Virus record (IMG/VR): IMGVR_UViG_3300027763_000027 | Span: 1-64,000 of that record | Reading direction: 5' to 3' (one strand) | Origin: a virus | Length of the DNA stretch: 64,000 nt | In this document: in pieces, positions 289 to 29,175 of the stretch | How the letters are laid out: the number at the start of each line of letters is the position of its first letter | Numbering within the stretch: position 1 is the first letter of the stretch | Translations under genes and position numbers: made by a program | The notes under the pieces: generated by a model | Seen by the model: only the letters and a program-made list of their open reading frames with translations | Told to the model about the DNA's origin: nothing | The model's database searches: none

Positions 289-3200
289 GTAATGATGACA
301 TGGGCGCCAGTAGCAATAGTCTCACAAGATTATACTATGGTAACAAAAACAGGAGACTCTAATCTATACGCTTTAGTTAAACAGGGTGGCATTGAAACTC
401 AATATAATATAAATTTGCCATCATATACAAATACAACTATGTTAGTTAAATATGATCCATTGCAAAAACCATCTTTCGTATATTCGGCTGTAAGTGGAAC
501 GGGTTATGTGTTAAATTATTTAAAATTGAATAGTGGAAATTGGGAAGTAAAAACTGTTGGATCTCTAGGTTCTTATATTGAAAAAGATTCTATAGATCTT
601 CAATATGATCCAAACGATAATCTTCCTGCATGTATATTATTCGATACATCTAATAATGATTTAAATTATTATAAATATAGTGGAAATTCTTTTGTCAAGA
701 CAACAGTATTTGATGGAGCAATAAATAATGGTAATTTAGCAACCTCGAATCAGACAGTTAAATACGCTAATTTGAATTTTGATTTATATGATAGTTTTCC
801 AGTTGTAACATTTTTAGAAGAACGTTATTTTCCAGTAGTTGGGACTGGGATTGGTATTTATTTTTACCATGGAAAAAATTATAACAACGGATTAGGATTT
901 CAAAAATCTATAATAAATACATTTTCTCAAACATTAAATAATAAAAAACATATAAATACAAAATTAATACAATCAAAAAATTTATTTCTAACTTTCTTTG
1001 GAGGAAATACTACAGGACTCTTTCTTAATATGGTTAAAGATAACATTCAGTATCCATCAAATTGGAAAACTGGCACACATTATGATTTAACTGGAGATAA
1101 TATATATGAAAAGCCACAAGTTGAAGTTTTTCCATTACCTTATGAGAATGTTTCTGTAGCTTATATATCCACTAATTCAAACAAAAGGACTGGTTTATTT
1201 ATTGAGGCATTTAATAATCTTGAAGCCACAAATTTAGATGTTAACTCTAACATACAACCATATAATTATGCAAAATATACTTTAATAACAGGATCTGGAA
1301 TAGATATTAATAAAAATATTATTTCAAAAATAGATTCTGACCTTAATCCCATAGTTTTTTATAAAAAAGACAATCTTATTAAATATGCAAAATATACAGG
1401 AATTAATTTTAGTGCTCCTAATTCGTGGTCTAATAACAATTATAATTCAGGTTTTTCTAGCGAAAATACTTTTAAAAATTTAAGTAATTCAAGTTCTTAT
1501 CAATTTGGATTTGATTTTGCAACAAAAGATATTTTTAAAATTTACGCAGTGACCCTAAACGACAGTAGACATGATACTCAAGGCGGACCCAACTATCTTC
1601 ATACTGGAGGATACAACATATTTCAAGAATATAAGTATCCATATGTCAAACCTACTAGAAGTGGAACAATTGACAGCACATTACTAGAAATGAATTCTTG
1701 TAGCATAAAAATAAACCCAGTTACAAAACAGCCAAACTTAATGTTCGTTGATACTAATATAATAAAATATTATTATCCTATAAATGATGAATTAACATCT
1801 TGGACAGGCTTAACTTTCCCTTCTGGAAATATTATTCTAAGTGGCAAAAATATTTCTATTCGTGTACAAGATATGGGTAAATTTGATTTTGATAGAGAAA
1901 CAAATCAATTAGTTATGCATGCTCATTGCCGTTCTTGGACTGGTACCGTTAGCTATGATAATGGTATTCTATTTAAAAAAGATTTAACAGGGGCAGGATA
2001 CACATATTATAATACTCCATATACTGGTTCTTACGGAGCAGCAACCGATTTTAAAGTAAATCCAATTACAAATCAATATTCATTAATTTATGTAGATTCA
2101 TATCATGGTATAATATATTCTGAAATGAACCCGTACACAAAAGCTTGGAAACATTCATATATTGAATCGGGTGGACTATATGGAGATAGTAAAATTAATT
2201 TAGATTTTAAAAGCAATGGTTATCCAGTTACAGCTTATGTAACAATTAGCGGTAGCGCGAGGAATATAACTGGATTTCTAAAAATAGCAGAATATGATGG
2301 TTCAAATTGGACAAAAACAATACTTCATACTGCAACAGGAAATTATTTTTGGTTAAATGGGCTTGATTTTAAATATAACTCTGGAGAAAATTATTATGGA
2401 GTTTCATGTGTTGATAATCAGAATTATCTGCCAAAGTTAAGCGGACTATATATAACAAATAAAGGCGTTCCATATGATGGGCAAATTAAAAAATATAGTT
2501 GGGATCATATTGCTCCTAATAATGAATACGCTTATCATACTCAATTGCTTTTTAAACAATATAGTGGCGAGACTACGCCATTTATTTTTAGATTCTCAGG
2601 TTTTAATGATATTATTTATTTAGAAAATGAAAAGTTAATAACAGGAAAATTTATAAATAAATTAGATTTAAACTCACAATTTGGTACCGCAGAAGTAATA
2701 GATTATACAACCGAACAAAAGGAAGCGCCAAAAGTTCCAATACAATTTTTCATAAGTGAAAATTATAATGGAGAATGGACTATTTATGAAAATCAAAGCG
2801 TGCTTGCTCAAAAAAATTTAAATACATCATTTAGGTTTACTCAAGGGTTTGGAAATGAAATTTTAAAACTTTATACATTCTATACTTATCCTGGAAACTC
2901 AATATGTATTAACTTTTATAATAATAATGTAGTTGGTAGTGTTGTTTTGGGCCGTGCAATTCTACGATACAATGGAAATAATTTAATAGATATTACTTCA
3001 ATGCAGCTTTCAGCGAGTAATAAAATATGCAGTAGTATCCCTAGATCAACGGTTACCTCAACTAGCGCACCCATAGCTGCACCATCAACATCCGCTCCAA
3101 CTTCGGCACCTATATTTAGTCCAGATGTTTATTCAACTTATACATCTTCTCAACAAAATATTTTAATGAATAGTAGTAATAATGGAGCAGCTTCTGTTTA

Positions 3201-4416
3201 TCCAATAACGTTTAATGTAAATAATATTAATAGCAATAGCGTAGTACGTCAGGTAAATTTAGAATTAGAAGGCTATAATCATACTTATGCTGAAGATGTG
3301 GCGATGATTTTAGTTTCTCCATCAGGTGATGGAGTTTTAATTTCGAATTGCTTGGGTTATAATAATGCTGCAAATAATATAAATGTTGTTTTTGATAAAA
3401 ACGCACCCCTTTTATGGAATGGATATAGTTCTGGTACTTATAGACCAAATTCTCTAACTTCTGGAGATTGTGGTGATAGAATATTTCAACCAGAAATAAA
3501 TCTTCCGTACACAGGTATAAGTTCTTATTCAACTGATTTATCTATATTTTCTCACATGCAACCAAATGAAGCAAATGGAATTTGGAGACTTTATATTCAA
3601 GATTTTTGGCCATCAGATGATAATGGTTCTTTATTAAGAGCTAAATTAAAATTTTATACAGATATAAATTGCTCTTGTTTAGAGGGAACAAATAGCCACA
3701 TAAAAAGACTTGGTACTTATTATAGAGATTTTATTCCAAATCAAGAATTTTGTGATAAAAGTCCAGTTAACGTTGTCGTTACAAATCAATCATGTTTAAA
3801 TTATGGAGCAACCATACAATGTATGTCATGTCAAACTCCATGTGATAATGGTTGTGCGCGAGGAACAACTCTACAAAGCACACCATGCGCGCAAGCTTGC
3901 CCAGGATGTTGTCCTTATCCAGAGCTTGGATGCAAAGGTACTTTAACAACATTTGATGATCAAAAAGATGTTGATCGTTATTTTGCGAGTTATAATGAAG
4001 ATGACAGAAAACAATCTTGCGCTGAAACTTTTGGTATAGTTAGTCCATTATCATGTTACGAAGGATATCTAGCATGTGGTGACCCTGTCACAATAACATT
4101 TACTGCATCTCAAGTAGATGATGCTGTCACTTTCGAATATACTGGAACCGTTATTGCTTGGGGTGGAGATCCGCCCTACTCGAGAACCGCAACTGTTCTT
4201 CCTGGTGGAACAGCTCAAATTAGAATAGCAAATATTAATGAACAAGGTCCATCTCACGCTATTGTTTCAATAAGCAGTTCTAAAGGAGGAAGCGTAAACA
4301 CAACACATTGTTGTTGTGGATTCGCAAATAGAAATTGCGAAGGAAATGGTCCAGTTATTACTCCTTGTAACTGTCCAAGCAATATAGTTATTGCGAGTTT
4401 ATTTGTGCCAAGATAA
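1..4416 (+). CDS. Large virion structural protein (fibre/decoration-like), 5'-partial: Pro/Thr/Ala linker, beta-rich region, proprotein-convertase P-like domain, Cys-rich C-terminus
   Basis: Frame +1 is open from base 1 into ORF 292..4416; P-domain-like motif HTYAEDVAMILVSPSG...ANGIWRLYIQDFWPSDDNGSL; many Cys in the last ~250 aa; upstream of lysis and tail genes. Confidence 0.7.
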   Translation, partial: TAPPTTAPTVAPTSAPTVAPTKAPTAPPTTAPTVAPTSAPTVAPTKAPTAPPTTAPTVAPTSAPTVAPTKAPTAPPTSAPTVAPTVAPTVAPTSAPVMMTWAPVAIVSQDYTMVTKTGDSNLYALVKQGGIETQYNINLPSYTNTTMLVKYDPLQKPSFVYSAVSGTGYVLNYLKLNSGNWEVKTVGSLGSYIEKDSIDLQYDPNDNLPACILFDTSNNDLNYYKYSGNSFVKTTVFDGAINNGNLATSNQTVKYANLNFDLYDSFPVVTFLEERYFPVVGTGIGIYFYHGKNYNNGLGFQKSIINTFSQTLNNKKHINTKLIQSKNLFLTFFGGNTTGLFLNMVKDNIQYPSNWKTGTHYDLTGDNIYEKPQVEVFPLPYENVSVAYISTNSNKRTGLFIEAFNNLEATNLDVNSNIQPYNYAKYTLITGSGIDINKNIISKIDSDLNPIVFYKKDNLIKYAKYTGINFSAPNSWSNNNYNSGFSSENTFKNLSNSSSYQFGFDFATKDIFKIYAVTLNDSRHDTQGGPNYLHTGGYNIFQEYKYPYVKPTRSGTIDSTLLEMNSCSIKINPVTKQPNLMFVDTNIIKYYYPINDELTSWTGLTFPSGNIILSGKNISIRVQDMGKFDFDRETNQLVMHAHCRSWTGTVSYDNGILFKKDLTGAGYTYYNTPYTGSYGAATDFKVNPITNQYSLIYVDSYHGIIYSEMNPYTKAWKHSYIESGGLYGDSKINLDFKSNGYPVTAYVTISGSARNITGFLKIAEYDGSNWTKTILHTATGNYFWLNGLDFKYNSGENYYGVSCVDNQNYLPKLSGLYITNKGVPYDGQIKKYSWDHIAPNNEYAYHTQLLFKQYSGETTPFIFRFSGFNDIIYLENEKLITGKFINKLDLNSQFGTAEVIDYTTEQKEAPKVPIQFFISENYNGEWTIYENQSVLAQKNLNTSFRFTQGFGNEILKLYTFYTYPGNSICINFYNNNVVGSVVLGRAILRYNGNNLIDITSMQLSASNKICSSIPRSTVTSTSAPIAAPSTSAPTSAPIFSPDVYSTYTSSQQNILMNSSNNGAASVYPITFNVNNINSNSVVRQVNLELEGYNHTYAEDVAMILVSPSGDGVLISNCLGYNNAANNINVVFDKNAPLLWNGYSSGTYRPNSLTSGDCGDRIFQPEINLPYTGISSYSTDLSIFSHMQPNEANGIWRLYIQDFWPSDDNGSLLRAKLKFYTDINCSCLEGTNSHIKRLGTYYRDFIPNQEFCDKSPVNVVVTNQSCLNYGATIQCMSCQTPCDNGCARGTTLQSTPCAQACPGCCPYPELGCKGTLTTFDDQKDVDRYFASYNEDDRKQSCAETFGIVSPLSCYEGYLACGDPVTITFTASQVDDAVTFEYTGTVIAWGGDPPYSRTATVLPGGTAQIRIANINEQGPSHAIVSISSSKGGSVNTTHCCCGFANRNCEGNGPVITPCNCPSNIVIASLFVPR

Positions 4417-4429
4417 TATAACAATTTAA

Positions 4430-5059: not shown

Positions 5060-5062
5060 TAT

Positions 5063-6027: not shown

Positions 6028-6035
6028 CATATTGT

Positions 6036-15600: not shown

Positions 15601-18600
15601 AAGAAGCTGCGGGAAATAATGAGATTGCAAAAAGAATGGCGACTTTAACTCCAGAATTAGATTCAAGTATAAAAAATTTATCAACAAGTTTGAAAAAAGC
15701 AGCAAATTCGTTCGATCAATTGGGGGCTGGTGCTGAAAAAGCTTCAACCGAAGTACAATCTACAAATTTAGGATCAACTGTAGCTCAAGCTAACACAAAA
15801 ATTCAAAAACTTGGGGATTTATTTAATGATGATAAAATAGGAGCAGGTCTTCAAAAATTTAAACAAAATTTAGGATTTGCATCAATTGGAATTTCAATGG
15901 CAGGAGGATTTTTAGCTGAAACATTTGGATCAGATAATAAAGCTCTAAAAGATGGCATAAACGGCTTAAGTCAAGGGCTATCGACAGCCACAACCGCAGT
16001 AATGTTAATACCAGGTCCAGCTGGTCTAGTTGTAGGGGCATTTACCGCATTGTATACAGCCGCTTCAACTGTTGCAAAATATATCAAACAAAATGGAGAA
16101 GATTTAAGTAAAAAATTAGAAGATTCAAAACAAGCTGCTTCTGATTTTGCTAATTCTTCTCAAACCCTTTCTCAAGTTCAACAAAAATTAGCTGATGCTT
16201 ATAAAAATACAAAAACTTCTCCAGCAGAATTAGATAAATTAAATAAACAACTAGTTGATGCAATAGGTGATTTACCAGAAAAATATAGAATGCAATTATT
16301 AGGAATTGGTGATAATATTAAATTACAAGAAGAAATGACTAAAGTTCAAGGTGAATTAGTAAAAGAACAAAAAAATTTAGAATTTGCTTCAGCATATTCA
16401 GCTAAACTATTAGATTCAGCTTTTACGACCCCAGATGTATTTAAAAATTTATCAGATTTAAATTCTGCTGCAAAAAGTATTTTGGCAGGTTTCTCAAAAG
16501 AAGGTAAGACTAATTTCATAGCGGATGTAGAGAACCAAGCTGTTAATTTAACGAAATCATCTCAAACGCAATTCATTAAATATTTAAAAGAATTTTATGG
16601 TTTAAACTCAAACATAGCTGGAGCTCTAGAAAAAGCAAATCCTCAAGAAATAAATAATTTAAAAACAGCTTTAATCAAATTAGGCACGGACGCAAAGAAT
16701 AGTAAAGATGCAGTAGAGGCTGGAGCCGAGTCAAGAAAAGCTGAAATTTTAAAATTAGAATCACTTAAAAAAGCTGCAGACGCAGCAGATGCAGCTGTAG
16801 AAAATTTAAATGATTCATTATTAGGACTAATTTCGGCTTCAATTAGTGGAAGTGAATTTAAATCACAAAATAGACAAAATGAATTGGCAAATCAAAGCGC
16901 GATAGAATTAAATAGAGCAACTGGTAATTTAAACACTAGATCAGATTTTAGTAGTCCAGAGTCTGTTAATAGAGTGCAAAATATTATAGATTCTCAAAGA
17001 AGAAACGAAGACACTTTAAAAGGTTTTAGAGACGCAATATCTGGATCAAGAAATGAAATTAGTAATGCCGTACAAGATTTATTAAAAAAATTATCAAGTC
17101 CAGATAGTGGATTAAGCGCTTCTCCAGAAATAATTAAACAACTTGGTCAAAGATACATGAATATTGGTTCTCAAAATTTAAATCCTAAAGATTATGCTGA
17201 TGCAATTTACAAAGCTACGATGGACCTTATGGGGCCAACTAATACTAGAGCAAGTGGTCTACAAGATAAATTAATTTCTATTAATCAACAAGCAAATCAA
17301 AGACTTTTAATGATAAGCCAAGAAGCAATGAAAAATAATCAAATTGCTCAAGATAATTATAAAATACAGCAACAAATGCTACAAGACAAAAGAGATGTAT
17401 CTGCGATGGGTGGATTAGAAGGCTATGCTTCTGGTGGATCTTATGATAAAATTAGACAAATTTTACAAGATTTCAAAACAACAAGAGGCGGAGGACAAAG
17501 TAGAGCAGCTCTTTTAGGTGAAACTATTAATTTAGCTGGAGGAGGATTTAATGAAAAATTCTTAAAAGGTTTGACTCCATTTACAAATACTTTAAAAACT
17601 CAAAGAGCGCAAGATATAAGATCTAATGCTCTGAGTATAGCTAGAAACTCACCAGGAGGCATTGCGCCAATCTTTAGAGACATAGCAAAAAGATCTTATG
17701 ATATTGCCTCAAAACAAGTTGATTTCGCTATAAAATCTAGTCAGGCTGATGCAGAATTAGGTTTAAATGTAAAAAGTATATTAGGCATATTAGAAAAAGC
17801 AAATCTTAATCAACAGCAATCGGCAAAAGAAATAAACCTTCCTGGTAATTTAGACAATGCTAAAAAAGCATTAGAGAGAGACTATAAATCAGAATATAAA
17901 TCTATAGAAGAAGAAATTAAACGTGCACAAAATATAGCTGCTTCTAATAGAAGTTACCAAGGATTAGGAGAAGAAATTGGGCAAAAAAGTTCAAGAATAG
18001 ATTACATGGAAAAAAGAAAAGCCCAAATACAAAAAGAAAACGAATCATTAGTGCAACAATTAGAAGCTTCTAATCTTCCAGAAAAAGTTAAAACTTTCTT
18101 ACTAGATCAAATAAATCAAGCTTTGGAAACTGGACAAGAAGTACCATCTATTTCTAAATTACAACAAGGCTTCACAAGTAAATATGGGGCAAATAGAAGT
18201 CAAGAAGGCATGGAGGCTAATCCAAATATAAATTATGATTTAGAAAAACAATTAAATGAATTAAAAAAATTAAATATACAAAGCATATTAGGAGATTTAA
18301 GTAAAAATCAAACAGACACTCAAGCTATAAAAACTAATATAGAAGGCATAAGCGAAGCTCTAAGGAGAGCGAATGAAGAAGCTGAAATAATGAAAAAAGC
18401 TTTAGAAGCAGTAGGAGAAAAACCAATAGATATTACTGCTCCAATTAATAGAACTAATGATCAATCGAGTATTATACAAATCGACACGAAACCCATAAGT
18501 TTAAATATACCAGAGAACGCTATCAATCTACAAATGGGCGGAAACATTACTGTCGATCCTATCAATTTCAATGTATCATTAGATCAAACAACAGACCTAA

Positions 18601-18749
18601 CAAGTATGATAACTCCAATTGCAGAAAAGATTGTTACAGACATTAATTTAGCTCTGACAGATAGCTTACAACAACAAATATCAACTCTTAAACAACAAAT
18701 TTCTGATTTGGGTGGAAGAAGGTTGCCTCCAGAAAGAATGTTGGTATGA
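12663..18749 (+). CDS. Tail tape measure protein (TP901-like core) with internal GFIPNF-delimited modules
   Basis: 2028 aa, helical; core motifs EFSRQG, AEAIKRVGSSA, TARGGAVIGNSFKTIFTRL. Confidence 0.9.
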   Translation: MAEGKDRIIIDVLGNTRPLEKEIQRVANQSLTLNTKGFSAPLGKISGQLGEFEKSLAASNARVIAFGASAGAIYAVQKAFQETIKSVIDVEKALTDINVILNVSQKSLSEFGSGLFKIAKDTGTSFQEVTRAATEFSRQGLGVTDTLKRTSDALILTRLSGLDVVSSVEAITAALNSFNQTSITSNELVNKLAAVDASFAVSSGDLAEAIKRVGSSAQDAGVSLDQLVALVTSAQQTTARGGAVIGNSFKTIFTRLERPKVLDALDELGIKTRDIEGNALPLIQVLQELSKTFDTLSGSQRAQIAELVGGVFQINILKAALSDLSKEYSIYGQALGISSTATDEANQRNEALNKTLSATINKTLANLQGAASQIGQVAFGPALERALGGLNSVLENFGESKDTESIGEKIGQGLLSGLGNFLSGPGLLLGLATTFKVFERLTVFASDAFKSLSSISTQNTNQQALQTQILNLLGKNPQIIEQINKGNLSTTSLHNQILTLIQQETAAMQQQVAIANTLAKSLSAVGVNVATTGPYKGAAISRNKALGFIPNFSASDEITGALMGGYSPGSIKKTSIPNYGQVTYNSAEKVKKIDGLSQQAIMPPEKSPAGQAYKNNFQNIHGFNPYASRGFVPNFAPADRTDAMISKGYIRISGAEATQYLQRTNGQLKDTATSLGVVRDKGNLYVPQGNYNKLINNLKTNLETKAVGRGEQLEGKLNPYALVYPSFQQSTSFGTYGTAGGKKIGFYAVPFPGQLKDKDREMIGPGLYAQAIDGIVNTASNFLNDLAGVSPEVINSSKFKNYLKSNISQDQIGSLVGNAFEGGVLSALNIIPDDRTRNLDLTSAELKKLGETFKVNPLMGTNYRGGDFKNSLSGGNLDSMANKILTSQNAAFGFIPNFSPIKKALNAEKNLGGNGVLDFEPGFGLYVRDKNTQKNFSDVKKDHPEGLKKAISNSFGVQKNMAAFGFIPNFAPALPTLSPQEAAGNNEIAKRMATLTPELDSSIKNLSTSLKKAANSFDQLGAGAEKASTEVQSTNLGSTVAQANTKIQKLGDLFNDDKIGAGLQKFKQNLGFASIGISMAGGFLAETFGSDNKALKDGINGLSQGLSTATTAVMLIPGPAGLVVGAFTALYTAASTVAKYIKQNGEDLSKKLEDSKQAASDFANSSQTLSQVQQKLADAYKNTKTSPAELDKLNKQLVDAIGDLPEKYRMQLLGIGDNIKLQEEMTKVQGELVKEQKNLEFASAYSAKLLDSAFTTPDVFKNLSDLNSAAKSILAGFSKEGKTNFIADVENQAVNLTKSSQTQFIKYLKEFYGLNSNIAGALEKANPQEINNLKTALIKLGTDAKNSKDAVEAGAESRKAEILKLESLKKAADAADAAVENLNDSLLGLISASISGSEFKSQNRQNELANQSAIELNRATGNLNTRSDFSSPESVNRVQNIIDSQRRNEDTLKGFRDAISGSRNEISNAVQDLLKKLSSPDSGLSASPEIIKQLGQRYMNIGSQNLNPKDYADAIYKATMDLMGPTNTRASGLQDKLISINQQANQRLLMISQEAMKNNQIAQDNYKIQQQMLQDKRDVSAMGGLEGYASGGSYDKIRQILQDFKTTRGGGQSRAALLGETINLAGGGFNEKFLKGLTPFTNTLKTQRAQDIRSNALSIARNSPGGIAPIFRDIAKRSYDIASKQVDFAIKSSQADAELGLNVKSILGILEKANLNQQQSAKEINLPGNLDNAKKALERDYKSEYKSIEEEIKRAQNIAASNRSYQGLGEEIGQKSSRIDYMEKRKAQIQKENESLVQQLEASNLPEKVKTFLLDQINQALETGQEVPSISKLQQGFTSKYGANRSQEGMEANPNINYDLEKQLNELKKLNIQSILGDLSKNQTDTQAIKTNIEGISEALRRANEEAEIMKKALEAVGEKPIDITAPINRTNDQSSIIQIDTKPISLNIPENAINLQMGGNITVDPINFNVSLDQTTDLTSMITPIAEKIVTDINLALTDSLQQQISTLKQQISDLGGRRLPPERMLV

Positions 18750-18774: not shown

Positions 18775-20412
18775 ATGGCATATACATTTACAGATGCAAC
18801 TTTATTAAGTTATCAAGTAAATAAAAATTACTTGGGAGAAGGCGTTGCCTCTTTGAATGAAAGAGTTAAAATTACTATTAAGGGTATCTTTGATAATAGA
18901 TTAACAAACTCTAAAGGCTATGGCGTTAAAGCTACGATTGATAATATTAAAAACTTATTGTTGACTACATCAAATGTTTATGATGATATCATTGTAAATA
19001 ATTTTAATCTTGGTAAGGGTATTATCACTAATATATCTTTTCCAAAAGATAATCCAATTATTTTTGGAGATTATAGTTACGACATAGAAATAATAAACAG
19101 TACGGATTTTTCTAATATTCCTACTGGTAGTACAACTTATGGGTCTACTTTATCTTCTTTAAAAGATTTGATAAATACTTTTGATGAAAAATTTGATTTT
19201 AATTACGGTCAAGATGGGACTTACACGTGCAGCCACTCTATTACTTTGCAATACTTTAATGATAAAACAGATGTTATTGCAAAATGTAAGACTTTAGCCA
19301 ACGCATTATTTAATGAAAATTTATCATTAGGATTAATCGGCAAATTTGCTGGTCAATACGCATCTTTAAAAACTAAAAAGAATTATTATTCTGAAAGTTA
19401 TGATTTAGTAACTAAGACATGTACTTTTACAAAAGAAATAGAAATAAATGAAAATACATTATCTTCTTATTCTAATTCTATATCTCATTCATTAACTTTT
19501 AGTGAAAACGGAAAAACAACAATACAAGAGCAAGGGTTAATAAAAGCTCTTGACGATACCCAATCTTTTACTGCAGAAAATTATTTTAATACAGAAATAA
19601 ATAATTCTTTTTCAAGATGTCAACAATTTTTTAATAGTTATGCCACAAAATATTCACTAGGTTCCGTGGATTCTCTTATCAACGCTTCATATGAGCTGGG
19701 AAAAACAATTAATCTAGTAGATAATAGTTTGGGATATTCCATATCATATACAAATGATCTGAGCGCAGAACAGAATTTGATTCACACTTATTCTAAAGTA
19801 GTAAATACAAATCAAGAGGGTGTTACCACTGTATCAGAAGAAGGAGAGATAAGTTTAAAAGCTATATTGGGAACCATAGTGAATTTAAACCAATTTAAGG
19901 TAAAATACCTAACGGCAAAATTACGAATAGATAATGATCCTTTATACGCGGGTTATAATAAATCTCGTGCCTCAATGAGCTATGAAAAAATTGCATCTTC
20001 TAATTATGGAAATAAATTTACTTATAGAATAGAAAAAAATAATGAAAAGAAAAATGCTCTTGCAGATAACTCAGTTTATAAAAGTTTACAGCTCTCAATA
20101 CAGGACGATAAACCCGCTGAGATATATAAAGAATATATCATTGCGAATAGAATTCCAAAAAATGTACTTTTTACTTTAGGAAACCAAGTACAAATGGGAA
20201 CTCGAACAGTTCAAATAAATGGAACTTTAACTAAACCTGCCTCAGACGTATGGAGTACGCCAAGAATTTTTCCTTTGAGTGACTTAAAAAGTATAGCGAT
20301 TAATAATGGTCTTGTTGGTATAAGCAAAGATGCTTATATAAGTGAAGTATCATATGGATACGGGTCTAGTAATGATTTCTCATTCACTATGACTTTAATG
20401 TATTTGGTATAA
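18775..20412 (+). CDS. Tail-tip/baseplate structural protein
   Basis: Follows the tape measure; beta-rich 545 aa. Confidence 0.55.
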   Translation: MAYTFTDATLLSYQVNKNYLGEGVASLNERVKITIKGIFDNRLTNSKGYGVKATIDNIKNLLLTTSNVYDDIIVNNFNLGKGIITNISFPKDNPIIFGDYSYDIEIINSTDFSNIPTGSTTYGSTLSSLKDLINTFDEKFDFNYGQDGTYTCSHSITLQYFNDKTDVIAKCKTLANALFNENLSLGLIGKFAGQYASLKTKKNYYSESYDLVTKTCTFTKEIEINENTLSSYSNSISHSLTFSENGKTTIQEQGLIKALDDTQSFTAENYFNTEINNSFSRCQQFFNSYATKYSLGSVDSLINASYELGKTINLVDNSLGYSISYTNDLSAEQNLIHTYSKVVNTNQEGVTTVSEEGEISLKAILGTIVNLNQFKVKYLTAKLRIDNDPLYAGYNKSRASMSYEKIASSNYGNKFTYRIEKNNEKKNALADNSVYKSLQLSIQDDKPAEIYKEYIIANRIPKNVLFTLGNQVQMGTRTVQINGTLTKPASDVWSTPRIFPLSDLKSIAINNGLVGISKDAYISEVSYGYGSSNDFSFTMTLMYLV

Positions 20413-20416: not shown

Positions 20417-22069
20417 ATGGCGACTAATTATATAAAATACAACTCAAATCAATTAATTTATCCAACCCCATTAGTTGAGTTGTCTAGAGAAAATGCGTAT
20501 GATAATAATCATTTAGGTTTTGTCGACAAAATTACTTTGAAAGGCCAACTAACTGGAAATTTTTATCAATTACAAACTGGCCAAAGCGGAATATTAAATA
20601 TCTTTAATAAAAATTTTGGATTATTTGAGATTTATGAAGAAACTCCTAGGGGTAGTAGCGTGATATTTGAAAAAATTTATGAAAAAAGTGGAATCAATAT
20701 TACGTCTATATCCTTTGAAGAATCAGCTTATAATGGTATGTTGAATTATACAGTTGAATTAAATTCGTCAACAATGAGTGGAAATGTTGTAAATCCAGTG
20801 AATCAATATAATTTTGTAGAAAATAAAGATAAAACAATATCTTTATCTCATAGCATTTCTGCGCAAGGAATAAATACGGCTAGTTATCCATCTAAATCTA
20901 ATGCATTAGAAAATGCGATAAGTTTTGTGACACAAAATACTGGGCTAGCAAACGTACCAACGATAAAATTTATAAGTGGCGCAAGCAATAATTTTTATTT
21001 ACAAAATATTTCAGAATCTATAGATCGCTTAAACGCTATATACTCTATAGATGAATCTTATACTAGTAGTTTATTAAGTACTGGAAGTTCAGGAATTTTA
21101 AAATATTCTATCGACATTTCTTCTGGCGTAGCAGCTGATTCATTAAGTTTATCGATAAAAGGGAGTTATAAAGGGGCGTTAGGTGGTAATATAAATGATT
21201 TAAGAAATAGTTTAAATGTAACTAAATTGGTATCTGGAGCATACTCTAGTTATTTTAATCCAATACCAATTAATTATAGTATTTCAGAGAATACTGGGGA
21301 AAATATAATAAATTTTGATTATTCTTTTGATAATATCAATTTACCAAATCCATACTTTAAATACGACACAAGTGTAGAAAAAGATGATATCGAACAAGTT
21401 ATAAAAGTAGATATAAACGCGAGTATTATTACTAGAGGAAATAGATATAATAGATATTTATTATCCCAAGCCGCTCAAGCTTCTTTAAATACTGGTCTTT
21501 TTGCTATTGCAAGCGGAGCAGTATTAGATTTTAAAGATTTTAATAGCGATACAGGATACTATAAATTAAGATTACAGAATATAGAGTTTATAGATAATCC
21601 AAATGAGGGAGTCATAACGGCAAAAGCCTCTTATGATGATAAACCCATGCCAAGTGGAGACGACCCAGCAATCGCTGATTCTTCTTTTCAAATATCTGTT
21701 CAAGCCCCATGCTGGTATATGGTTGGCGTGCCAGCAATTAATCAAAGAGGTTACTATATTATAAATGATTTTGATATTACTACATTACCAAAATGCACAA
21801 TCGAATCAACCGTATCAATAAAAGATGGGACATCTCAGGGTTCAACTACATCTATACAAAATAATATTAAAAATTCAATCGGAATAATTTCGCCTAGCGA
21901 CTATAATTTTAATATAACTATAAAAGAATCTTTTTCCGAAGAAAGAGCAAATTTAGATCAAACCTCTAATTTGACGCAACCAATTTTAAACACAAAAAAT
22001 GTAAATTATAAAATTGAAAAAGTATGCACGACTAACCAAAGCTCTATTTTTCCAAAGATATATCAATGA
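20417..22069 (+). CDS. Tail-tip/baseplate structural protein
   Basis: Similar size and composition to the previous gene; both have ITxISF and HSI(S/T) elements, possible paralogue. Confidence 0.55.
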   Translation: MATNYIKYNSNQLIYPTPLVELSRENAYDNNHLGFVDKITLKGQLTGNFYQLQTGQSGILNIFNKNFGLFEIYEETPRGSSVIFEKIYEKSGINITSISFEESAYNGMLNYTVELNSSTMSGNVVNPVNQYNFVENKDKTISLSHSISAQGINTASYPSKSNALENAISFVTQNTGLANVPTIKFISGASNNFYLQNISESIDRLNAIYSIDESYTSSLLSTGSSGILKYSIDISSGVAADSLSLSIKGSYKGALGGNINDLRNSLNVTKLVSGAYSSYFNPIPINYSISENTGENIINFDYSFDNINLPNPYFKYDTSVEKDDIEQVIKVDINASIITRGNRYNRYLLSQAAQASLNTGLFAIASGAVLDFKDFNSDTGYYKLRLQNIEFIDNPNEGVITAKASYDDKPMPSGDDPAIADSSFQISVQAPCWYMVGVPAINQRGYYIINDFDITTLPKCTIESTVSIKDGTSQGSTTSIQNNIKNSIGIISPSDYNFNITIKESFSEERANLDQTSNLTQPILNTKNVNYKIEKVCTTNQSSIFPKIYQ

Positions 22070-23874
22070 ACTTATCATATTTAAATAACTATTTTTCTGA
22101 TAAATCTTTGAATAAAGATGCTATACAGTTATATTATGATTTTGATCAAGTATCTGGAGTCTTCTTGAAGAATAAAATTTATGAAAATGAAGTGCAATTT
22201 TATCCTGTCGCACAAGGATTTTCTATAAATAAAAAATATTCGCCAGCTTTCTTCAATACAAAATATGGCCAAGTTAGTTTTACTGGTTCAGGTGTTTTTC
22301 AGGGCACGAATACAATGCAAATTTTTGAAGAATCTACTTCTGCTGATAATAGTCTATTTATTAATTTTGGAAGATTGAATTGTAATAAAAATTTTACTTT
22401 AAATGGTGATTTAATTTCTATACCAACTGGAAAAATACAAACATTAGGCTATATAAAATCAAAAAATAATACAAACCCATTTCAAATTATATTAGGGTTA
22501 AATGACGCAAATGATCTTACTCTTGAGTTTTCTGGGGGCACAGAATCTTACAAAACAGTAACTCCCAAGGAGTTATCTTTTCAGAATATTTGTTGTTTAA
22601 AATTTGGGCGTAATATCTTGGAGCTTAATTATTATGATATTATAGAAAATGAAACTCATAAGTCTAGAATAGATATAACTGGAAATTACTTTGAACAAAA
22701 TAAACAGCTGTATATTGGTAATGTAGGTTCTGGTTTTCTAGATCAAAATTATACTGGATTTTTTGGAACTGTCGATGACATTTTATTACTTAATAATATT
22801 CCAGATGATGCGCAAAGCTTTGGGCTTGCTAAATTATTTATAAAAACTGGTGAATATATTGATGTAGTTAATCTAACTGGATTAACATTTAATGTTATTA
22901 GTAATGCTTTTTTAAATCCTACAGGTATAATTGGAGTAGGAATAAATGGTTATCAAGATATAAAAATTGAAGAAGCTTTAGTAAGTGGTTCTTTAACTGG
23001 TATTTATATACAGTCTGGCGTTACAGGGAATATTACTGGAGAAACAATAGAAATTCAGACTTCTACTCAGTCTGTAATATCTAATACTGGGCAAATTATC
23101 ACAAAATACGAACTATATGATGAAAAGTACTCTTCTAATTTTACAAAAGATAATATCATTTTTAATAAAAAAACAGATGACCAAGACATTTTTGAAATTC
23201 AATTTTATTTAGATTCTCAAATAAAAATTAGTCATTTTGACTACTCTAATGTATCTGATATATATGTAGCTAAAGATAATGTATCAGATAAAAACAACTC
23301 TATATATATTAACGGAATTCGATTAGTATCTGGGATAAATTATGAATATACACAACCAAATGTTTTTATTACTAACGATTACCCTAAAGGAGACTCTAAC
23401 GACTTAGCTTTTTATACCGTTTCTAGTCTAACAGGAAATAAAGTTTATCAAACAGATTTTAATAGGTCTTCTGAGTCTGGAGACTACTATTTAGCTTATT
23501 CTTTTTCGGATAATAATTCTAATTGGGGTAGATCAAATATATTCTTAAATGGGCAAAAATTAATATCTGGATTTAATTATCTTATCGCTGGGCAAAATTT
23601 AAATAATCTTTATTTATATAAAAATTTACCAACTGGGTCACTTACTATTGTAAAAGACAATTTTATCTCAGGGGTAACGGGAAATAATACTAAAATATAC
23701 AATTCGTCTTTGAAGTATAACAATGAGCAGATTTGGCTTAATGGAATATACCAGTACAAGGGGATTGATTATATATTATCTTCTTGTTATAATTCATTAA
23801 TGAGCGCTTCTGGAGATATAGAGGTCAAAGAGAACTATATATTCGATAATGAATATTACAGATTTAATTTATAA
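22066..23874 (+). CDS. Virion structural protein (LamG/ConA-like N-terminal part, NG-repeat C-terminal part)
   Basis: LYYDF...LYIG...FFGTVDD pattern; repeated (I/L)NG motifs IYINGIRL, IFLNGQKL, IWLNGIYQ. Confidence 0.5.
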   Translation: MNLSYLNNYFSDKSLNKDAIQLYYDFDQVSGVFLKNKIYENEVQFYPVAQGFSINKKYSPAFFNTKYGQVSFTGSGVFQGTNTMQIFEESTSADNSLFINFGRLNCNKNFTLNGDLISIPTGKIQTLGYIKSKNNTNPFQIILGLNDANDLTLEFSGGTESYKTVTPKELSFQNICCLKFGRNILELNYYDIIENETHKSRIDITGNYFEQNKQLYIGNVGSGFLDQNYTGFFGTVDDILLLNNIPDDAQSFGLAKLFIKTGEYIDVVNLTGLTFNVISNAFLNPTGIIGVGINGYQDIKIEEALVSGSLTGIYIQSGVTGNITGETIEIQTSTQSVISNTGQIITKYELYDEKYSSNFTKDNIIFNKKTDDQDIFEIQFYLDSQIKISHFDYSNVSDIYVAKDNVSDKNNSIYINGIRLVSGINYEYTQPNVFITNDYPKGDSNDLAFYTVSSLTGNKVYQTDFNRSSESGDYYLAYSFSDNNSNWGRSNIFLNGQKLISGFNYLIAGQNLNNLYLYKNLPTGSLTIVKDNFISGVTGNNTKIYNSSLKYNNEQIWLNGIYQYKGIDYILSSCYNSLMSASGDIEVKENYIFDNEYYRFNL

Positions 23875-23910: not shown

Positions 23911-25956
23911 ATGGCTGTAAAATTTATAGATAGCATCCAGATTGGAGGCAACGCCCCTGGGCAATTTGCTGGGGGCTATATCTATTCTATGAATATGACT
24001 CAAGGTTATGCTGAAGAAATTAATAAGTTAACTATTGATGTTGTTTATGAAAACTCCTCTGTGAATCCAAGTTTTCCAACTAAAGATCTTGTCTCTTCAT
24101 TTTCCATAAGTGTCGGTAGATTAAATTTCCCAAAAATGCATTTTCTTTCGAGCTCGGTGAGTAAAAGCTTGGGTCAAACCACTGCTTCTTGTACTTTTGT
24201 AGATGATTCTGTAAAGTTAGATAGATATTATGTTGGTTTATATAATAGGCATGGAAAAGAAAGCGCTGGAAATTTGATAATTGTTGGATCTCCGCAAGCA
24301 AATACCGATGCTCCATGTAGCGCTGATGATATCAATTATAGAATTGACGAATTAATGTCAAAAATATCTGGTATAATTAATATAAATAGATCGTTTGGTT
24401 ACCTTAACACTTTAAATTACACAGGTACAATAAGACAAGTTTTATCTAATATAGGGAGCGATTTTGGTTTTAGCTTTTATTGGGATATGATGCAGGACAA
24501 ATTAGTATTTGTAGATTTAAAAAATGGAATAAATTTATCTAATGTAGAATCTATATCTAATAATACTTCAATTCCACTTGCTGATTTTAAAAGTGAAGAG
24601 ACCCTAGAAGGAACTTATGCAAAAGGTTTTTCTAATTTTTCAGCAAAAAATGGAGGAGTAAAAGAGGTTACTTATAAAGAGTGGAGTAGACTCACTTACG
24701 TAAATATACCAGCAAATATAACAAACCTCGCTCAATGTTTTTTAGCTTCAGTGAACCCAACTTTACGAACCCTTTACGCTTTAAGTGAAGGTAGATATTC
24801 TCAAGCAGGAGTTTTTGGTTTTAATCCTTTTAATGGAGCTACGTTTTCATATATTGACACAATTTTTAACTCTTTTATAAACGAAATTCGTGCAAGAGGT
24901 TTTCCGCATGTTATTGGGGCTTGCGATTCTATAGATTCAGAAGGAGAGAAAGCAATAACGCAATTAGAAGCGAATGAATTTCAAAACTATGGGAAATATT
25001 ATCGAAAAACTAATATAGTCACTATTGCGCCAGATATTTGCGGTTCAGAATATTCTAGAAAAATAACCTCTACTTTTTGGCCTGGAAATGATAGTATTTC
25101 TAACCAAGCGTGGGGTTCTGCTTCTGCTCCAGATTTTACAAGAAATCCAAATACCACAGTTGAGGGTTGGCTTCCTTATCAATTAGATCCTTTATTTCTG
25201 CCAGTTACAGACGAATTAGCTGATCAATTGCTTCAGTTTTCTTTAAGAAAAGGATTTCGCAGCCAAGACTTTTTTTTACGTGGAAAAACATTAATAGCTT
25301 TTCCAAAAATAAGTGTTACAGTAAGTAGTGGAGAAAATCCTAATGAAGAAGCTTTTCAACCCGCAGTATATAGTGATAGTGCTACAGGAGAAGATCCCAG
25401 TTGTTTAAGGTGTGCCAGAAGAACTAGCAACACTCCAGCGGCTACTAACTCAGAATTAACTACTCCAGGCAGAGGATTAAATAGTAAAAGATGTTCTATA
25501 GTAAACGTTACTACTCCAGGAGGGGGAAGACTAATTGGCTATTTACCATCAACAGATATGTACTTTGGGTACGTTCAGGTCGATGTCACAGAATCGTATA
25601 ACGATTCAGCAAGCTCATCTATTGATGGGGGCGGTCTTACTGTGCCAAGCACTGCGATGCAGTACGAGCATACAGCGGTAGATATAACTAATAAATCAGA
25701 ATTAGATAAGGCAGTAAAAGAAATGGCCTATTCAGCTTTACCTCTAAAAAATATATCATTTAAAATTATTGGTACAGATTATGGAAGTATAGCCAACATA
25801 ATGAACGCTGAATCTGGGTTAACCGCATTTTCAATTTATTTAGATGATACTGGAATTTTTAGTAATTTTACGTATCAAAGTAGACCACCAACTGCACCAG
25901 CTGCAGAAATAATTATGGAAAAAGTTTCTACAAGAAAAGTGACTATAACAGGATAG
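23911..25956 (+). CDS. Putative baseplate hub/tail-tip protein
   Basis: YTGTIRQVLSNIGSDFGFSFYWD resembles hub proteins; position in the module. Confidence 0.5.
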   Translation: MAVKFIDSIQIGGNAPGQFAGGYIYSMNMTQGYAEEINKLTIDVVYENSSVNPSFPTKDLVSSFSISVGRLNFPKMHFLSSSVSKSLGQTTASCTFVDDSVKLDRYYVGLYNRHGKESAGNLIIVGSPQANTDAPCSADDINYRIDELMSKISGIININRSFGYLNTLNYTGTIRQVLSNIGSDFGFSFYWDMMQDKLVFVDLKNGINLSNVESISNNTSIPLADFKSEETLEGTYAKGFSNFSAKNGGVKEVTYKEWSRLTYVNIPANITNLAQCFLASVNPTLRTLYALSEGRYSQAGVFGFNPFNGATFSYIDTIFNSFINEIRARGFPHVIGACDSIDSEGEKAITQLEANEFQNYGKYYRKTNIVTIAPDICGSEYSRKITSTFWPGNDSISNQAWGSASAPDFTRNPNTTVEGWLPYQLDPLFLPVTDELADQLLQFSLRKGFRSQDFFLRGKTLIAFPKISVTVSSGENPNEEAFQPAVYSDSATGEDPSCLRCARRTSNTPAATNSELTTPGRGLNSKRCSIVNVTTPGGGRLIGYLPSTDMYFGYVQVDVTESYNDSASSSIDGGGLTVPSTAMQYEHTAVDITNKSELDKAVKEMAYSALPLKNISFKIIGTDYGSIANIMNAESGLTAFSIYLDDTGIFSNFTYQSRPPTAPAAEIIMEKVSTRKVTITG

Positions 25957-25959
25957 TTT

Positions 25960-28773
25960 ATGATATTTTCTGGAAATAATAATTTATCCTTAAATCATCA
26001 AACAGGTTTAAGCTTTTCTATAGATTTAAAATTTAATAATTCTTCTGGTTATTGCGAATTAGGTTTTTCTGGTTTAAATCCTAGCGCTATACCAAAAGAA
26101 AAAGTGAGTTATATTTTTGATAAATCCAAACTTTATGATCCAGAAGGCAGACTAATTTATTTTTATAAAAACGACCAATCTATTAATTTGTCTGGTAGTA
26201 TAAATCCTATCTCTTATTCTTATTATATAGATGGAAACCTACTATGTTTAAATGGTAAAAAACAACCATTTAATTTAAATAAATTTTATTTAAATACTAG
26301 TGGATGTACGGTTGACGCGGATCTAAAGATACTTGGAGACGTACCTAATTATAATATAAGTTTAAATAAATTCAATGTAAGTGGGCTTCTAACTGGTACA
26401 ATTAATAATAACTCTTTATCTCAATTTAAGATTTATAGCGGTGTCGTAACTGCCCCAACTGGATTTTCAGTTAATTCTATTAATTTAGATGTTTTGACTG
26501 GAAATATTCCATCTTTTATTATAATAAACACGTTAAATGCAACGAAAAATCAAATAAATGACGGCACGGTATATCCTATCACTCTAAATTTATATACAAA
26601 TTTTGGTTTAATAAGTAGAATCTATAATGCTACTGGAAACTTTATTAAAGATCTTCAAGTAATTTTAAATTTAAATCAAGGGTTCGATTTCGATGTTATC
26701 AATTCCGTAAGTGGTATAAACGATATTAAAAATCAAGAATATAATTTAAATTTTTATATAAAAAGTGGATCAAATAATAATTTACCTAAAAATTTAAGTT
26801 TAAATTTAGAATATTTTGGAGGTAAAACTGGTTTATTTTATCAAGACATACTTGGTACAGGAATACAGAATGTTATTTTAACTGGTTTAATTACTGGTAG
26901 TAGTACACTAAGTAAAATAGTAAGTATGACGGCTACTGGATATGATTTTTTATCTAATCTAGAAAAAACTGGATACATAACTGGTGTAGCGCAAGGTTTA
27001 TTTTTTGCAACTGGGTTGAATTCAACTTCTGGATCTTTATCTAGCACTGGATTTTTTAATGGAAATTTAATTTATAAAAATATATTTTTTAATAAAAGTG
27101 GATTTTCAATAAATGGTATAAATGATTATTCAAATAGTTTTGTTAATGATTATCATTATTATGAAAATAAAGTTTTAACTGGTTCTAGTTCTAATAATAA
27201 CTTTTTATTCGGATCCAATATCGCTTCTAATCATGATCATAGTATTCTAGCTATATCTGCGCCATCTGGAAATATAGGCAATTACACTGGAGCTGGTTTA
27301 GTTTATATTTTTACAGGAAATAATAATTGGATTCAAACCGCTATTCTGTCTGGGAGCAACGCAACTACTGGAGATAATTTTGGATATGCTTTAAGCATGA
27401 ATGATAGCGGGACTGTTTTAGCGATAAGTTCACCAAATAAAAATTTAAATACAGGTATTAACACTTTAACTGGCGCAGGCGCAGTTTATATATTTAATAA
27501 AAATAATTCAAATTGGACAGAATCAACAATAATAACTGGAAGTGGGTCTCACGCAGGACAAAGATTTGGTCATTCTTTGGAGTTAAGTAAAGATGGAAAT
27601 ATTCTAGTGGTTGGCACGCCAAATAAAGATTTAATTACAGGTTTTAATACTTATATTGGAGCGGGGGTAGCATCTATCTTTGCTTATCAAACAAACGTTT
27701 GGAGAGAATTACAACAAGTAAATGCAAGTAATCCAGAAGACCAGGATGGTTTTGGCCATTCGGTTTCATTAAGCAGTGATGGATACGTCATAGGGATAGG
27801 AGCCACGGGTAAATATGTAGAATCATATCAAAATTTAGGATCTTTACATCTATTCAAAGGTAACCAATTTAATATAGATTATTGGCAAGAAGAGGCAATA
27901 CTAACTGGAAATAATTCTTCTGCTAGAGATAGTTTGGGCTATTCAATAAAAGTAAGTTATGATGGAAATACAATTTTGTCCAGTAGTATAAAAAATAATT
28001 CTAATGCTGGATATGCCTATGTCTTCACTGGGGATATGTTTGGTGAGTTTGATTATAAACAATCCCAAAGATTGCAGTCTTCAGATTCATCTGCTGGAGA
28101 TAATTTTGGATATTCTTTAACAATGAATAAAAGTGCTAACTTATTATGTATAAGTTCTCCATATGATAGTTATTCTAATTTAACTAGTGGCGGAAGCTGT
28201 TACATTTTTGAAAAAAATAACTTTTCATGGACAGAAAAACAAAAAATAACAGGAAATATCAATTATACTCAAAGTTATAATAAATTCGGAAATATAGTAT
28301 CTTTGAATAATGATGGGACCAATTTATTGGTTGGATCAGAACTATTTGATACTGGTTCTTATAATAATATTGGTTCAGTCTATAATTTTAAAAATGTAAA
28401 TTTAACTGGTTATTTGGGTGAAATAACTGGGACAGGTATAGTTTCATATAATTCAATTGTATTTGCTACTGGTAATATAACTGGGTTACCTTACAATAAA
28501 ACATTCTTTGATGTTTTCGATATGCAAACTGGCTATTATATAAATAATCAATTAACTGGAATCAAAAGCTTTAAAACTGGGAATCTTATATTAAATCAAA
28601 GTTATAAAAGCTCTGGAATAATAGACCCTTTAATTGATTCTATATATTTATCAATAAAAGCTAAAAATTATCCAGACAATGAAGCGATAACTGGTAAATT
28701 AATCATAAGTGGTTACGACAATGCTAATGATAATAATAGTGTAATTATTAATTATATAACAGGAAAGAAATAA
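25960..28773 (+). CDS. Tail protein with FG-GAP-like beta-propeller (candidate receptor-binding protein)
   Basis: Seven repeats of FG(Y/H/S)xxxxSxDGxxLxx(G/S)xP...G(A/S)VY(I/V)F. Confidence 0.8.
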   Translation: MIFSGNNNLSLNHQTGLSFSIDLKFNNSSGYCELGFSGLNPSAIPKEKVSYIFDKSKLYDPEGRLIYFYKNDQSINLSGSINPISYSYYIDGNLLCLNGKKQPFNLNKFYLNTSGCTVDADLKILGDVPNYNISLNKFNVSGLLTGTINNNSLSQFKIYSGVVTAPTGFSVNSINLDVLTGNIPSFIIINTLNATKNQINDGTVYPITLNLYTNFGLISRIYNATGNFIKDLQVILNLNQGFDFDVINSVSGINDIKNQEYNLNFYIKSGSNNNLPKNLSLNLEYFGGKTGLFYQDILGTGIQNVILTGLITGSSTLSKIVSMTATGYDFLSNLEKTGYITGVAQGLFFATGLNSTSGSLSSTGFFNGNLIYKNIFFNKSGFSINGINDYSNSFVNDYHYYENKVLTGSSSNNNFLFGSNIASNHDHSILAISAPSGNIGNYTGAGLVYIFTGNNNWIQTAILSGSNATTGDNFGYALSMNDSGTVLAISSPNKNLNTGINTLTGAGAVYIFNKNNSNWTESTIITGSGSHAGQRFGHSLELSKDGNILVVGTPNKDLITGFNTYIGAGVASIFAYQTNVWRELQQVNASNPEDQDGFGHSVSLSSDGYVIGIGATGKYVESYQNLGSLHLFKGNQFNIDYWQEEAILTGNNSSARDSLGYSIKVSYDGNTILSSSIKNNSNAGYAYVFTGDMFGEFDYKQSQRLQSSDSSAGDNFGYSLTMNKSANLLCISSPYDSYSNLTSGGSCYIFEKNNFSWTEKQKITGNINYTQSYNKFGNIVSLNNDGTNLLVGSELFDTGSYNNIGSVYNFKNVNLTGYLGEITGTGIVSYNSIVFATGNITGLPYNKTFFDVFDMQTGYYINNQLTGIKSFKTGNLILNQSYKSSGIIDPLIDSIYLSIKAKNYPDNEAITGKLIISGYDNANDNNSVIINYITGKK

Positions 28774-28776
28774 TCT

Positions 28777-29175
28777 ATGGGATGGTATAAATCATCTAAT
28801 TATAAAGCCAGCTCTTCTAGTCTTTTGAGTGGATCTGTTGGTGATTTGATCGTGCAAAGCGGAGTTTTTGTTGATGGGCAGCTGCAAGTAAACAGTGAAT
28901 ATATCAATGCTTATTATAAACCAGCTGTACCCGAAGCCCTCAACAACTATACTTATTATGAAGGACTGGGGGCATTTTTAACTATTAAAGAACAAAGATT
29001 AAGTAATGGAGGTATATATAAAATGCCTGTTTGGTCTAATAAACCTCTTTCTTCTACAAACTTTCCAACTGGTGTTACTGTAAGTGGATATTTATATAAC
29101 CCTCTCCGAATGCAAGTTTGTAATGGCGGGATAAATACAGTTATAGAAGTATTAGCGAGAATAGTACCTAGCTAA
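28777..29175 (+). CDS. Small hypothetical structural protein, last gene of the + strand module
   Basis: 132-aa ORF; 3' end overlaps the convergent gene. Confidence 0.65.
   Translation: MGWYKSSNYKASSSSLLSGSVGDLIVQSGVFVDGQLQVNSEYINAYYKPAVPEALNNYTYYEGLGAFLTIKEQRLSNGGIYKMPVWSNKPLSSTNFPTGVTVSGYLYNPLRMQVCNGGINTVIEVLARIVPS

Follow-up and report, generated by a model that had tools for sequence, protein, structure and literature searches.

Why should the glycines of a few tail proteins in one phage so often be preceded by serine or threonine? The question is raised by the window examined here, the first 64 kb (64,000 nucleotides) of IMG/VR record IMGVR_UViG_3300027763_000027, which is a single-contig virus genome of 171,916 bp, rated 100% complete by CheckV, with a guanine-plus-cytosine (GC) content of about 30%. 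The source is an uncultured freshwater phage of 172 kb with a siphovirus-type tail, in which the tape measure gene is followed by six tail-tip genes up to position 29175 (Table 1). An earlier note on this DNA, made from the letters alone, had pointed to a strong bias for Ser-Gly and Thr-Gly dipeptides (here [ST]G) in a subset of the virion proteins. We confirm the bias, which is strong and has been maintained in evolution, and find it to be a hydroxyl-specific motif on distal-tail proteins of unrelated fold; our tentative reading is that it marks sites for O-glycosylation.

For each open reading frame (ORF) we compared the [ST]G count with that in 1000 shuffled versions of the protein, and ratios given below are observed over expected (O/E). 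The 937-aa tail-tip protein is the richest, with 55 of its 99 glycines after Ser or Thr where 18.5 are expected (z 10.1); none of the 1000 shuffles reaches 55. Ser and Thr make up 18.7% of its residues, and the manual count in the earlier note, given as about 55 of about 100 glycines with Ser and Thr at roughly a fifth of residues, is exact. The same bias had been claimed for three further proteins and is present in each, at z of 4 to 7: the 602-aa tail-tip protein (25 of 48 glycines, expected 7.6, z 6.8), the 550-aa tail-tip protein (16 of 33, expected 6.3, z 4.2) and the 1374-aa virion protein (36 of 103, expected 17.8, z 5.0), in which 31 of the 36 sites lie within residues 1-800. The peptide quoted as an example, VSGSLTGIYIQSGVTGNITGE, corresponds to residues 306-326 of the 602-aa protein. 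The bias was also correctly described as weak or absent in the Dit-like protein, where 1 of 32 glycines follows Ser or Thr, and in the replication enzymes; nor is there any in the tape measure protein, the 681-aa tail protein, or any of the glycosyltransferase (GT) and other enzyme genes. Among the 172 ORFs of the whole genome the only standouts are these four window ORFs and a 1870-aa fibre that lies beyond the window (154762..160374 of G000; 68 sites against 41.8 expected, z 4.7). The genome outside the enriched ORFs is slightly low in the dipeptide, with 328 sites against 381 expected.

The enrichment survives control for composition. Local richness in Ser, Thr and Gly is ruled out as its cause, since z stays at 4.2-9.5 when residues are shuffled within blocks of 15 or 30 and G-[ST], the dipeptide in reverse, shows no enrichment. 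When all 400 dipeptides are ranked in the enriched set, the top two are TG (104 versus 41.6 expected) and SG (96 versus 50.4), and a hydrophobic residue occupies position -1 in 54% of sites. A DNA-level motif or a codon-pair effect is likewise ruled out, because the sites draw on all three Ser/Thr codon families, and the NNT codons of Asn, Asp, Ile and Tyr are not enriched before Gly (GGN). The signal therefore lies at the protein level. BLASTP finds no similarity among the enriched proteins, and the earlier argument from varied codons and unrelated folds to protein-level selection holds: selection acts on the protein, in one direction, across unrelated folds and within a limited subset of virion proteins of a GT-rich phage.

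Conservation was examined in about 80 homologs of the enriched tail proteins, down to 27% identity. Some 35 full-length orthologs of the 937-aa protein, ranging from 88% to 29% identity, all have ratios of 2.5-3.4, and among 43 homologs of the 602-aa protein, which extend to 27% identity, 42 have ratios of 2.8-4.4 and a single RCC1-fused form has 1.9. In five related metagenome loci the gene order is the same, and positional orthologs show the same pattern of enriched and non-enriched proteins. When 26 orthologs of the 937-aa protein are aligned, those at about 33% identity keep Ser or Thr before Gly in 60% of cases versus 26% for other Ser and Thr; about half of the individual sites change, yet their number stays at 53-61, and many positions are nearly invariant. 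Where the Gly of a site column is kept, the preceding residue is T in 661 cases, S in 333, N in 27, D in 10, and A, V or I in 31 together. Ser and Thr interchange freely, both being present in 30 of the 55 site columns. In a set of 20 enriched proteins, drawn from six phages, Ser or Thr precedes 52% of the 1355 glycines, and the O/E values are 3.68 for TG and 2.21 for SG versus 0.56 for NG, 0.60 for DG, 0.55 for IG and 0.77 for VG.

Could the fold of these proteins impose the motif? A generic property of fibres and baseplates is ruled out by 33 structural proteins (tail, fibre, baseplate, capsid and portal) of T4, T5 and lambda, for which the overall ratio is 1.13. The maxima in that set are 2.06 overall, in the lambda capsid protein gpE, and 1.83 among tail proteins, in T5 pb4; the corresponding O/E values before Gly are 1.26 for DG, 1.20 for NG, 1.19 for SG and 0.96 for TG. 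The central domain of the 937-aa protein matches Pfam FG-GAP_2 (PF14312, 123.5 bits over 5 stretches), and its Foldseek matches to integrin alpha headpieces (E 1e-14 to 1e-15) point to a propeller fold. FG-GAP repeats as such are ruled out as the cause, since cellular proteins that have only the FG-GAP_2 domain in common with it have ratios of 0.7-1.7, and cellular blades (n>300) carry [ST]G in just 1.2% of cases at the hairpin that follows the 'VYxF' strand and in 0.8% after 'W..[LIV]'. At the same two blade positions the phage orthologs have [ST]G in 73% and 85%. The cellular blades hold TR/VR/ER and KA/AS/TA there, i.e. polar residues, and the occurrence of K/R/E/Q/T at these homologous positions suggests that the phage sites are exposed. 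The Dit-like protein constitutes a natural experiment: it has 1 site in this phage versus 8-19 in full-length orthologs of relatives, 46 of the 58 site columns are filled in one ortholog only, and this phage has EN, NA, DN and NN there. Judged from these sequence comparisons, the fold neither requires nor imposes the motif: the T4/T5/lambda proteins, the cellular FG-GAP_2 blades and the Dit-like protein of this phage do largely without it.

The enriched proteins are almost all beta, and the AlphaFold model of the 937-aa protein (predicted local distance difference test, pLDDT, 81.8) has an integrin-like propeller at its centre. Mapped onto this model, 34 of the 55 sites are predicted to lie in loops (24) or where a strand meets a loop (10), and the other 21 inside strands. 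In 21 of the 55 the Ser or Thr is the last residue of a strand or one of the first two of a loop, versus 20% expected (p 0.0016) and 17.5% for other Ser and Thr, and there is no enrichment at loop ends.

We propose that hydrophobic-[Thr/Ser]-Gly serves both for recognition and as acceptor in protein modification by a phage enzyme, most likely an O-glycosyltransferase, and we give this proposal close to an even chance of being right. For such an overlay in a phage with more than 12 GT genes, an exceptionally GT-rich genome, no other single explanation is as economical as acceptor sites for a phage protein O-glycosyltransferase. The motif behaves as a sequon generally does, in that a hydroxyl is required, the bias is directional and it is independent of fold. 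Modification would take place in the cytoplasm, before assembly, on a subset of distal tail proteins, whose Ser/Thr hydroxyls would be glycosylated, and the Gly at +1 may open the acceptor to the enzyme, as at the EOGT site discussed below. The outcome would be a sugar-decorated tail tip. Candidates for the enzyme are the conserved GT9-like/GT4-like pair beside the tail or, in some relatives, a true O-heptosyltransferase of the Aah/TibC type.

The 378-aa GT9-like protein has a PF01075 (GT9) donor domain that scores 23-25 bits (cutoff 22) from about residue 28, and its D-S..H.A motif is conserved. Its predicted structure (pLDDT 90) begins with a generic GT9 donor domain, which a second domain of alpha/beta type follows, and Foldseek matches it to WaaF, 3tov, WaaC and TibC over about 200 residues. 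A 70-bit match that made TibC the nearest solved relative was rejected: it was an artefact that came from L002 and L009 being among the aligned sequences, and once the profile was built from the 378-aa type alone, WaaF was the only match (1psw, E 1e-4). The protein does not have the TibC set of N-terminal beta-barrel, beta-hairpin thumb and four-Cys iron finger (PMC4358343): the barrel is missing, the iron-finger segment of TibC aligns to gaps, and there is no conserved Cys quartet in the family consensus. This protein opens with the GT9 donor domain, which is the C-terminal domain of such enzymes, and in L001 and L007 its gene directly adjoins that for the 642-aa protein, while the Anp1-like gene intervenes in the window. 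The opening 55 residues of lipopolysaccharide (LPS) heptosyltransferases II/III show a weak match to residues 536-590 of the 642-aa protein, and the two genes may encode one GT-B enzyme split in two.

Two relatives do carry genes for what are, by their profile scores, bona fide members of the Aah/TibC 'autotransporter strand-loop-strand O-heptosyltransferase' family. L002:19499-20452 (-) and L009:21606-22496 (-) score 217.7 and 302.5 bits against TIGR04414 (hepto_Aah_TibC, cutoff 200); both match positions 83-374 of the hidden Markov model, lack the N-terminal barrel and directly adjoin tail genes. A second PF01075 gene lies at 22498-22853 in L009. We found no description of phage members of the Aah/TibC family in the literature searched.

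Aah/TibC-like genes also occur outside this clade, in Microcystis phage Mel-JY01 (L014, PP395634.1) and in two uncultured megaphages. In Mel-JY01 an unannotated ORF at 635-3052 (+) would encode a collagen-like (G-[ST]-[ST])n fibre of 806 aa whose C-terminal domain is globular, over which GenBank annotates an opposite-strand frame of 'PVPE' repeats (739-2298). It lies two genes upstream of a 1226-aa protein with an Aah/TibC-like C-terminal domain. In LR756501.1 (L016), a 735-kb uncultured phage, collagen-like G-[ST]-S tracts occur in a protein of 695 aa (12903-14990, -; 52 [ST]G versus 25.7 expected) that is encoded about 4 kb from the Aah/TibC-like gene, and in LR756504 there is no collagen-like fibre within 20 kb of that gene. 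The presence of a collagen-like fibre near (within about 5 kb of) an Aah/TibC-like gene in two of the three outside lineages is suggestive, as a pattern noticed post hoc in three cases.

Several observations weigh against glycosylation, and the earlier proposal that the sites are acceptors for the phage GTs stands only in part. Its support is that the motif is hydroxyl-specific and fold-independent and that a GT9-family gene adjoins the tail module in 6 of 6 loci, with no GT-free relative found. However, because all of the relatives form one syntenic clade, this adjacency is not independent evidence, and the co-occurrence that the note had suggested examining is confounded by common ancestry. 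The window phage lacks an Aah/TibC enzyme: the GT9-like protein has no TIGR04414 match, only LPS heptosyltransferase II/III at 22-26 bits, and a search of the whole genome gave no TIGR04414 match at E<=0.01. Neither the strength of the bias nor the S:T ratio differs between loci with and without a true Aah/TibC gene, and the baseplate proteins of Mel-JY01 are unbiased despite its Aah/TibC-like domain. The phage motif prefers Thr, unlike the Ser-only TibC. Of the 55 sites 21 are predicted inside strands, many are nearly invariant, which would hold for a structural motif too, and sugars at 55 sites within 937 residues would make the glycosylation very dense. The excess in the 1870-aa fibre comes from tandem BppL_N-type repeats (Pfam PF18338, 110.8 bits), a known structural motif. 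Finally, Pro/Thr/Ala-rich, mucin-like repeats are likelier targets of the second glycosylation module, the fusion protein encoded at the end of Table 1, and are a rival sink for the GT arsenal.

Among known systems, that of the bacterial autotransporter heptosyltransferases (BAHT; Aah/TibC, TIGR04414) resembles the proposed one in that many Ser of an all-beta adhesin (AIDA-I, TibA), encoded beside the enzyme, are hyperglycosylated in the cytoplasm, and in that L002 and L009 hold TIGR04414 genes next to tail genes. However, the window phage has no such gene; its GT9-like protein is donor-domain-first and lacks the iron-finger Cys and the beta-barrel. In addition, BAHT substrates are beta-helices with 19-residue repeats, whereas the phage sites are scattered over propellers and other folds. 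TibC modifies Ser, not Thr, and a mapped site of TibA, Ser313, sits in N-S-G-G (PMC4358343); in an AIDA-like substrate that served as a positive control, S-G is enriched (32 versus 18.4) and T-G depleted (7 versus 17.8). The nearest local match among known O-glycosylation sites is that of EOGT (GT61), which adds O-GlcNAc to epidermal growth factor (EGF) repeats at C5-X-X-G-(Y/F/L)-(T/S)-G-X2-3-C6 (PMC5388531) and thus shares a hydrophobic or aromatic -1, a Thr/Ser acceptor, an obligatory Gly at +1 and a folded domain. EOGT is, however, a eukaryotic endoplasmic reticulum enzyme whose site is framed by EGF cysteines, and the phage genome encodes no GT61 (PF04577, EOGT-type) or GT90 (POGLUT-type) gene. 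The earlier comparison with the Ser-Gly attachment sites of proteoglycans proves to be loose by this standard: the acceptor Ser of proteoglycan xylosylation is often flanked by Gly (PMC13038410), but it is Ser only, in acidic disordered patches with no strict consensus, and is used by a eukaryotic Golgi GT14-type enzyme, whereas the phage motif is Thr-preferring, hydrophobic and associated with beta-strands. Mycobacteriophages offer a precedent for phage-encoded GTs that decorate their own virion proteins, with glycans at the C-termini of capsid and tail-tube subunits (Freeman et al. 2023, cited in PMC12619734), although no report of an [ST]-G motif was found for them. The BppL_N module of lactococcal phage receptor-binding proteins (PF18338), whose tandem 'QT[IL]SGxKTF...VNGTG' units explain the excess in the 1870-aa fibre, is a repeat of one fold and is absent from the four enriched window proteins, in which the sites are dispersed.

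The motif could instead be purely structural, a lineage-specific beta-strand ending in which the hydroxyl caps a turn without any modification and which has been inherited and spread within all-beta tail proteins. It might take the form of a tight turn or a G1 bulge of the ubiquitin 'L-T-G-K' type, or of a three-chain beta-fibre signature, and we regard it as a substantial possibility that nevertheless falls well short of an even chance. The almost entirely beta nature of the enriched proteins, the hydrophobic residue at -1 in 54% of sites, the preference for strand ends and loop starts, and the conservation in position of about half of the sites at 33% identity, many of them nearly invariant, are all consistent with this explanation, as are the BppL_N-type repeats of the 1870-aa fibre and the independence of the bias from the presence of an Aah/TibC gene. 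Against it, the cellular FG-GAP fold has about 1% [ST]G at positions where the phage proteins have 73-85%, the number of sites on a single Dit-like fold ranges from 1 to 19, the ortholog poor in the motif having ordinary turn dipeptides instead, and the fibres and baseplates of T4, T5 and lambda are unbiased. The residues that usually cap a turn before Gly are Asn and Asp, yet neither is used here, although Asn is the commonest residue. The contexts of the sites are mixed, comprising loops, junctions and strands, and a propeller domain is not a three-chain fibre. A structural role also leaves unexplained the directional force that placed the same dipeptide on unrelated folds.

The paucity of NG and DG in the enriched proteins (0.56 and 0.60, versus 1.20 and 1.26 in T4/T5/lambda) might suggest that [ST]G replaces turns prone to deamidation or isomerisation in the long-lived virion proteins of an Asn-rich, AT-rich phage. 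We consider this very unlikely, since the depletion is no greater than that of the average non-S/T residue before Gly (about 0.59), NG in the enriched set of the window is near expectation (56 versus 59.7), the motif-poor Dit-like ortholog has EN/NA/DN/NN and not NG/DG where relatives have [ST]G, and other exposed virion proteins of the same phage are without the bias. Fold-independence and hydroxyl-specificity would fit any chemistry on Ser/Thr, and no GT in the genome could be tied to the motif; the sites might therefore undergo another modification, such as phosphorylation or acylation, or be recognized by a shared assembly factor or ligand-binding surface. That a different process of this kind is at work seems improbable, as no kinase, acyltransferase or comparable enzyme was seen beside the tail module, where the conserved neighbours are GTs, in a GT-rich genome.

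The features of the window that bear on these questions are collected in Table 1. Beyond position 29175 the genes are on the opposite strand, beginning with the 257-aa gene, the GT9-like gene, the Anp1-like GT and the 642-aa GT4-type protein and continuing with replication genes. In L001, L007 and L008, genes of 265-271 aa without family assignment occupy the place of the 257-aa gene, which they match by position. Among cultured relatives the tail-GT region has no DNA match, and the 'phages' collection contains no homolog of the GT9-like protein and matches the 937-aa protein at the FG-GAP level only; a scan of viral_contigs with the 602-aa protein gave no matches.

Table 1. Tail and glycosyltransferase features of the 64-kb window.
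Feature	Position	Strand	Remarks
1374-aa virion protein	292..4416	+	P_proprotein-like domain, S/A/P/T linker, Cys-rich C-terminus
Tape measure protein, 2028 aa, tail-internal	12663..18749	+	ratio 0.78
545-aa first gene after tape measure, Dit-like position	18775..20412	+	1/32 Gly after S/T
550-aa tail-tip protein	20417..22069	+	16/33 Gly after S/T; positional orthologs enriched too
602-aa tail-tip protein, no known family	22066..23874	+	25/48 Gly after S/T
681-aa tail protein	23911..25956	+	ratio 0.70; orthologs uniformly low, 0.19-0.82
937-aa tail-tip protein	25960..28773	+	N-terminal beta domain, long beta-hairpin region, FG-GAP_2 propeller at about aa 430-800, C-terminal beta domain
Conserved 257-aa gene, no family	29168..29941	-	between tail module and GT9-like gene
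Divergent GT9-family glycosyltransferase, 378 aa	29976..31112	-	56-62% identity on >100 contigs; candidate modifying enzyme, not an Aah/TibC member
Anp1-like (GT-A) glycosyltransferase, 213 aa	31116..31757	-	between GT9-like and 642-aa genes; absent there in L001 and L007
642-aa protein, GT4-type (Glycos_transf_1) domain	31750..33678	-	syntenic with GT9-like gene in relatives
O-FucT/GlcNAc-T fusion + 2-oxoglutarate (2OG)-oxygenase (P4H-like)	38467..42825	-	second glycosylation module

Some further observations concern individual proteins. Residues 1 to about 800 of the 1374-aa virion protein carry repeats of about 50 aa that resemble 'Y-x-Y-[ST]-G-x-x-[FW]', and its last 250 or so residues, which follow a segment like the P-domain of proprotein convertases (PF01483, 22 bits), are very rich in Cys. 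Its reading frame is open to base 1, with codons 5' of the ATG at 292 that encode T-x-A-P-type repeats; a protein longer than annotated is possible, as is circular permutation of the record. With the [ST]G-rich proteins set aside, the top dipeptide genome-wide is Ala-Pro (185 versus 90 expected), followed by PV and PT, which sit in Pro/Thr/Ala-rich linkers (such as residues 920-945 or thereabouts of the 1374-aa protein) and in a 'PT repeat' protein (PF04886; G000 153372-154757). The 1870-aa fibre consists in part of tandem units of about 44 aa, 'QT[IL]SGxKTF..VNGTGF[LV]LSGE', and its C-terminus weakly matches a grass-antifreeze beta-roll; it shares a BNR/propeller segment and BppL_N-type motifs with a 1464-aa fibre (161086-165480; L011). 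Tail fibres made of low-complexity repeats of the 'AGSASN' or 'SYA..AG' type, with Ala before most Gly, are encoded at L009:19788-21620 and L002:12711-14984, and no window fibre is alike. Apparent 'avoidance' of the motif in other tail proteins was rejected as evidence for a sequon, the two most depleted being 'AGSASN'-type repeat fibres.

Finally, we consider what the signature may mean for these phages. We found no earlier description of it in the papers searched. It is possible, with a likelihood somewhat below even, that large uncultured aquatic phages hyper-O-glycosylate their distal tail proteins at hydrophobic-[Thr/Ser]-Gly by means of GT9-family enzymes related to, or in some lineages of the same family as, the Aah/TibC adhesin heptosyltransferases. 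The sequon would be gained and lost on propellers, Dit-like proteins and fibres much as N-glycan sequons are in enveloped viruses, and would provide a phage 'glycan shield' or a glycan-mediated adsorption device that is predictable from sequence. If glycosylation is the correct reading, the motif would allow sugar-coated tail proteins, and the positions of their sugars, to be predicted from sequence. Virion glycosylation, known from a few mycobacteriophages, would then be a trait of a large and abundant group of aquatic phages as well, and phage tails would be linked to the bacterial Aah/TibC system of adhesin glycosylation. Glycans at the tail tip could influence host recognition, resistance to proteases, and recognition by defence or immune systems, and they would be missed when receptor-binding proteins are expressed recombinantly without the phage transferases. 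Even if the motif is purely structural, it would still be a strong and previously undescribed signature by which one class of phage tail proteins can be told from cellular proteins that share their fold, and it would be useful for annotation and protein design.

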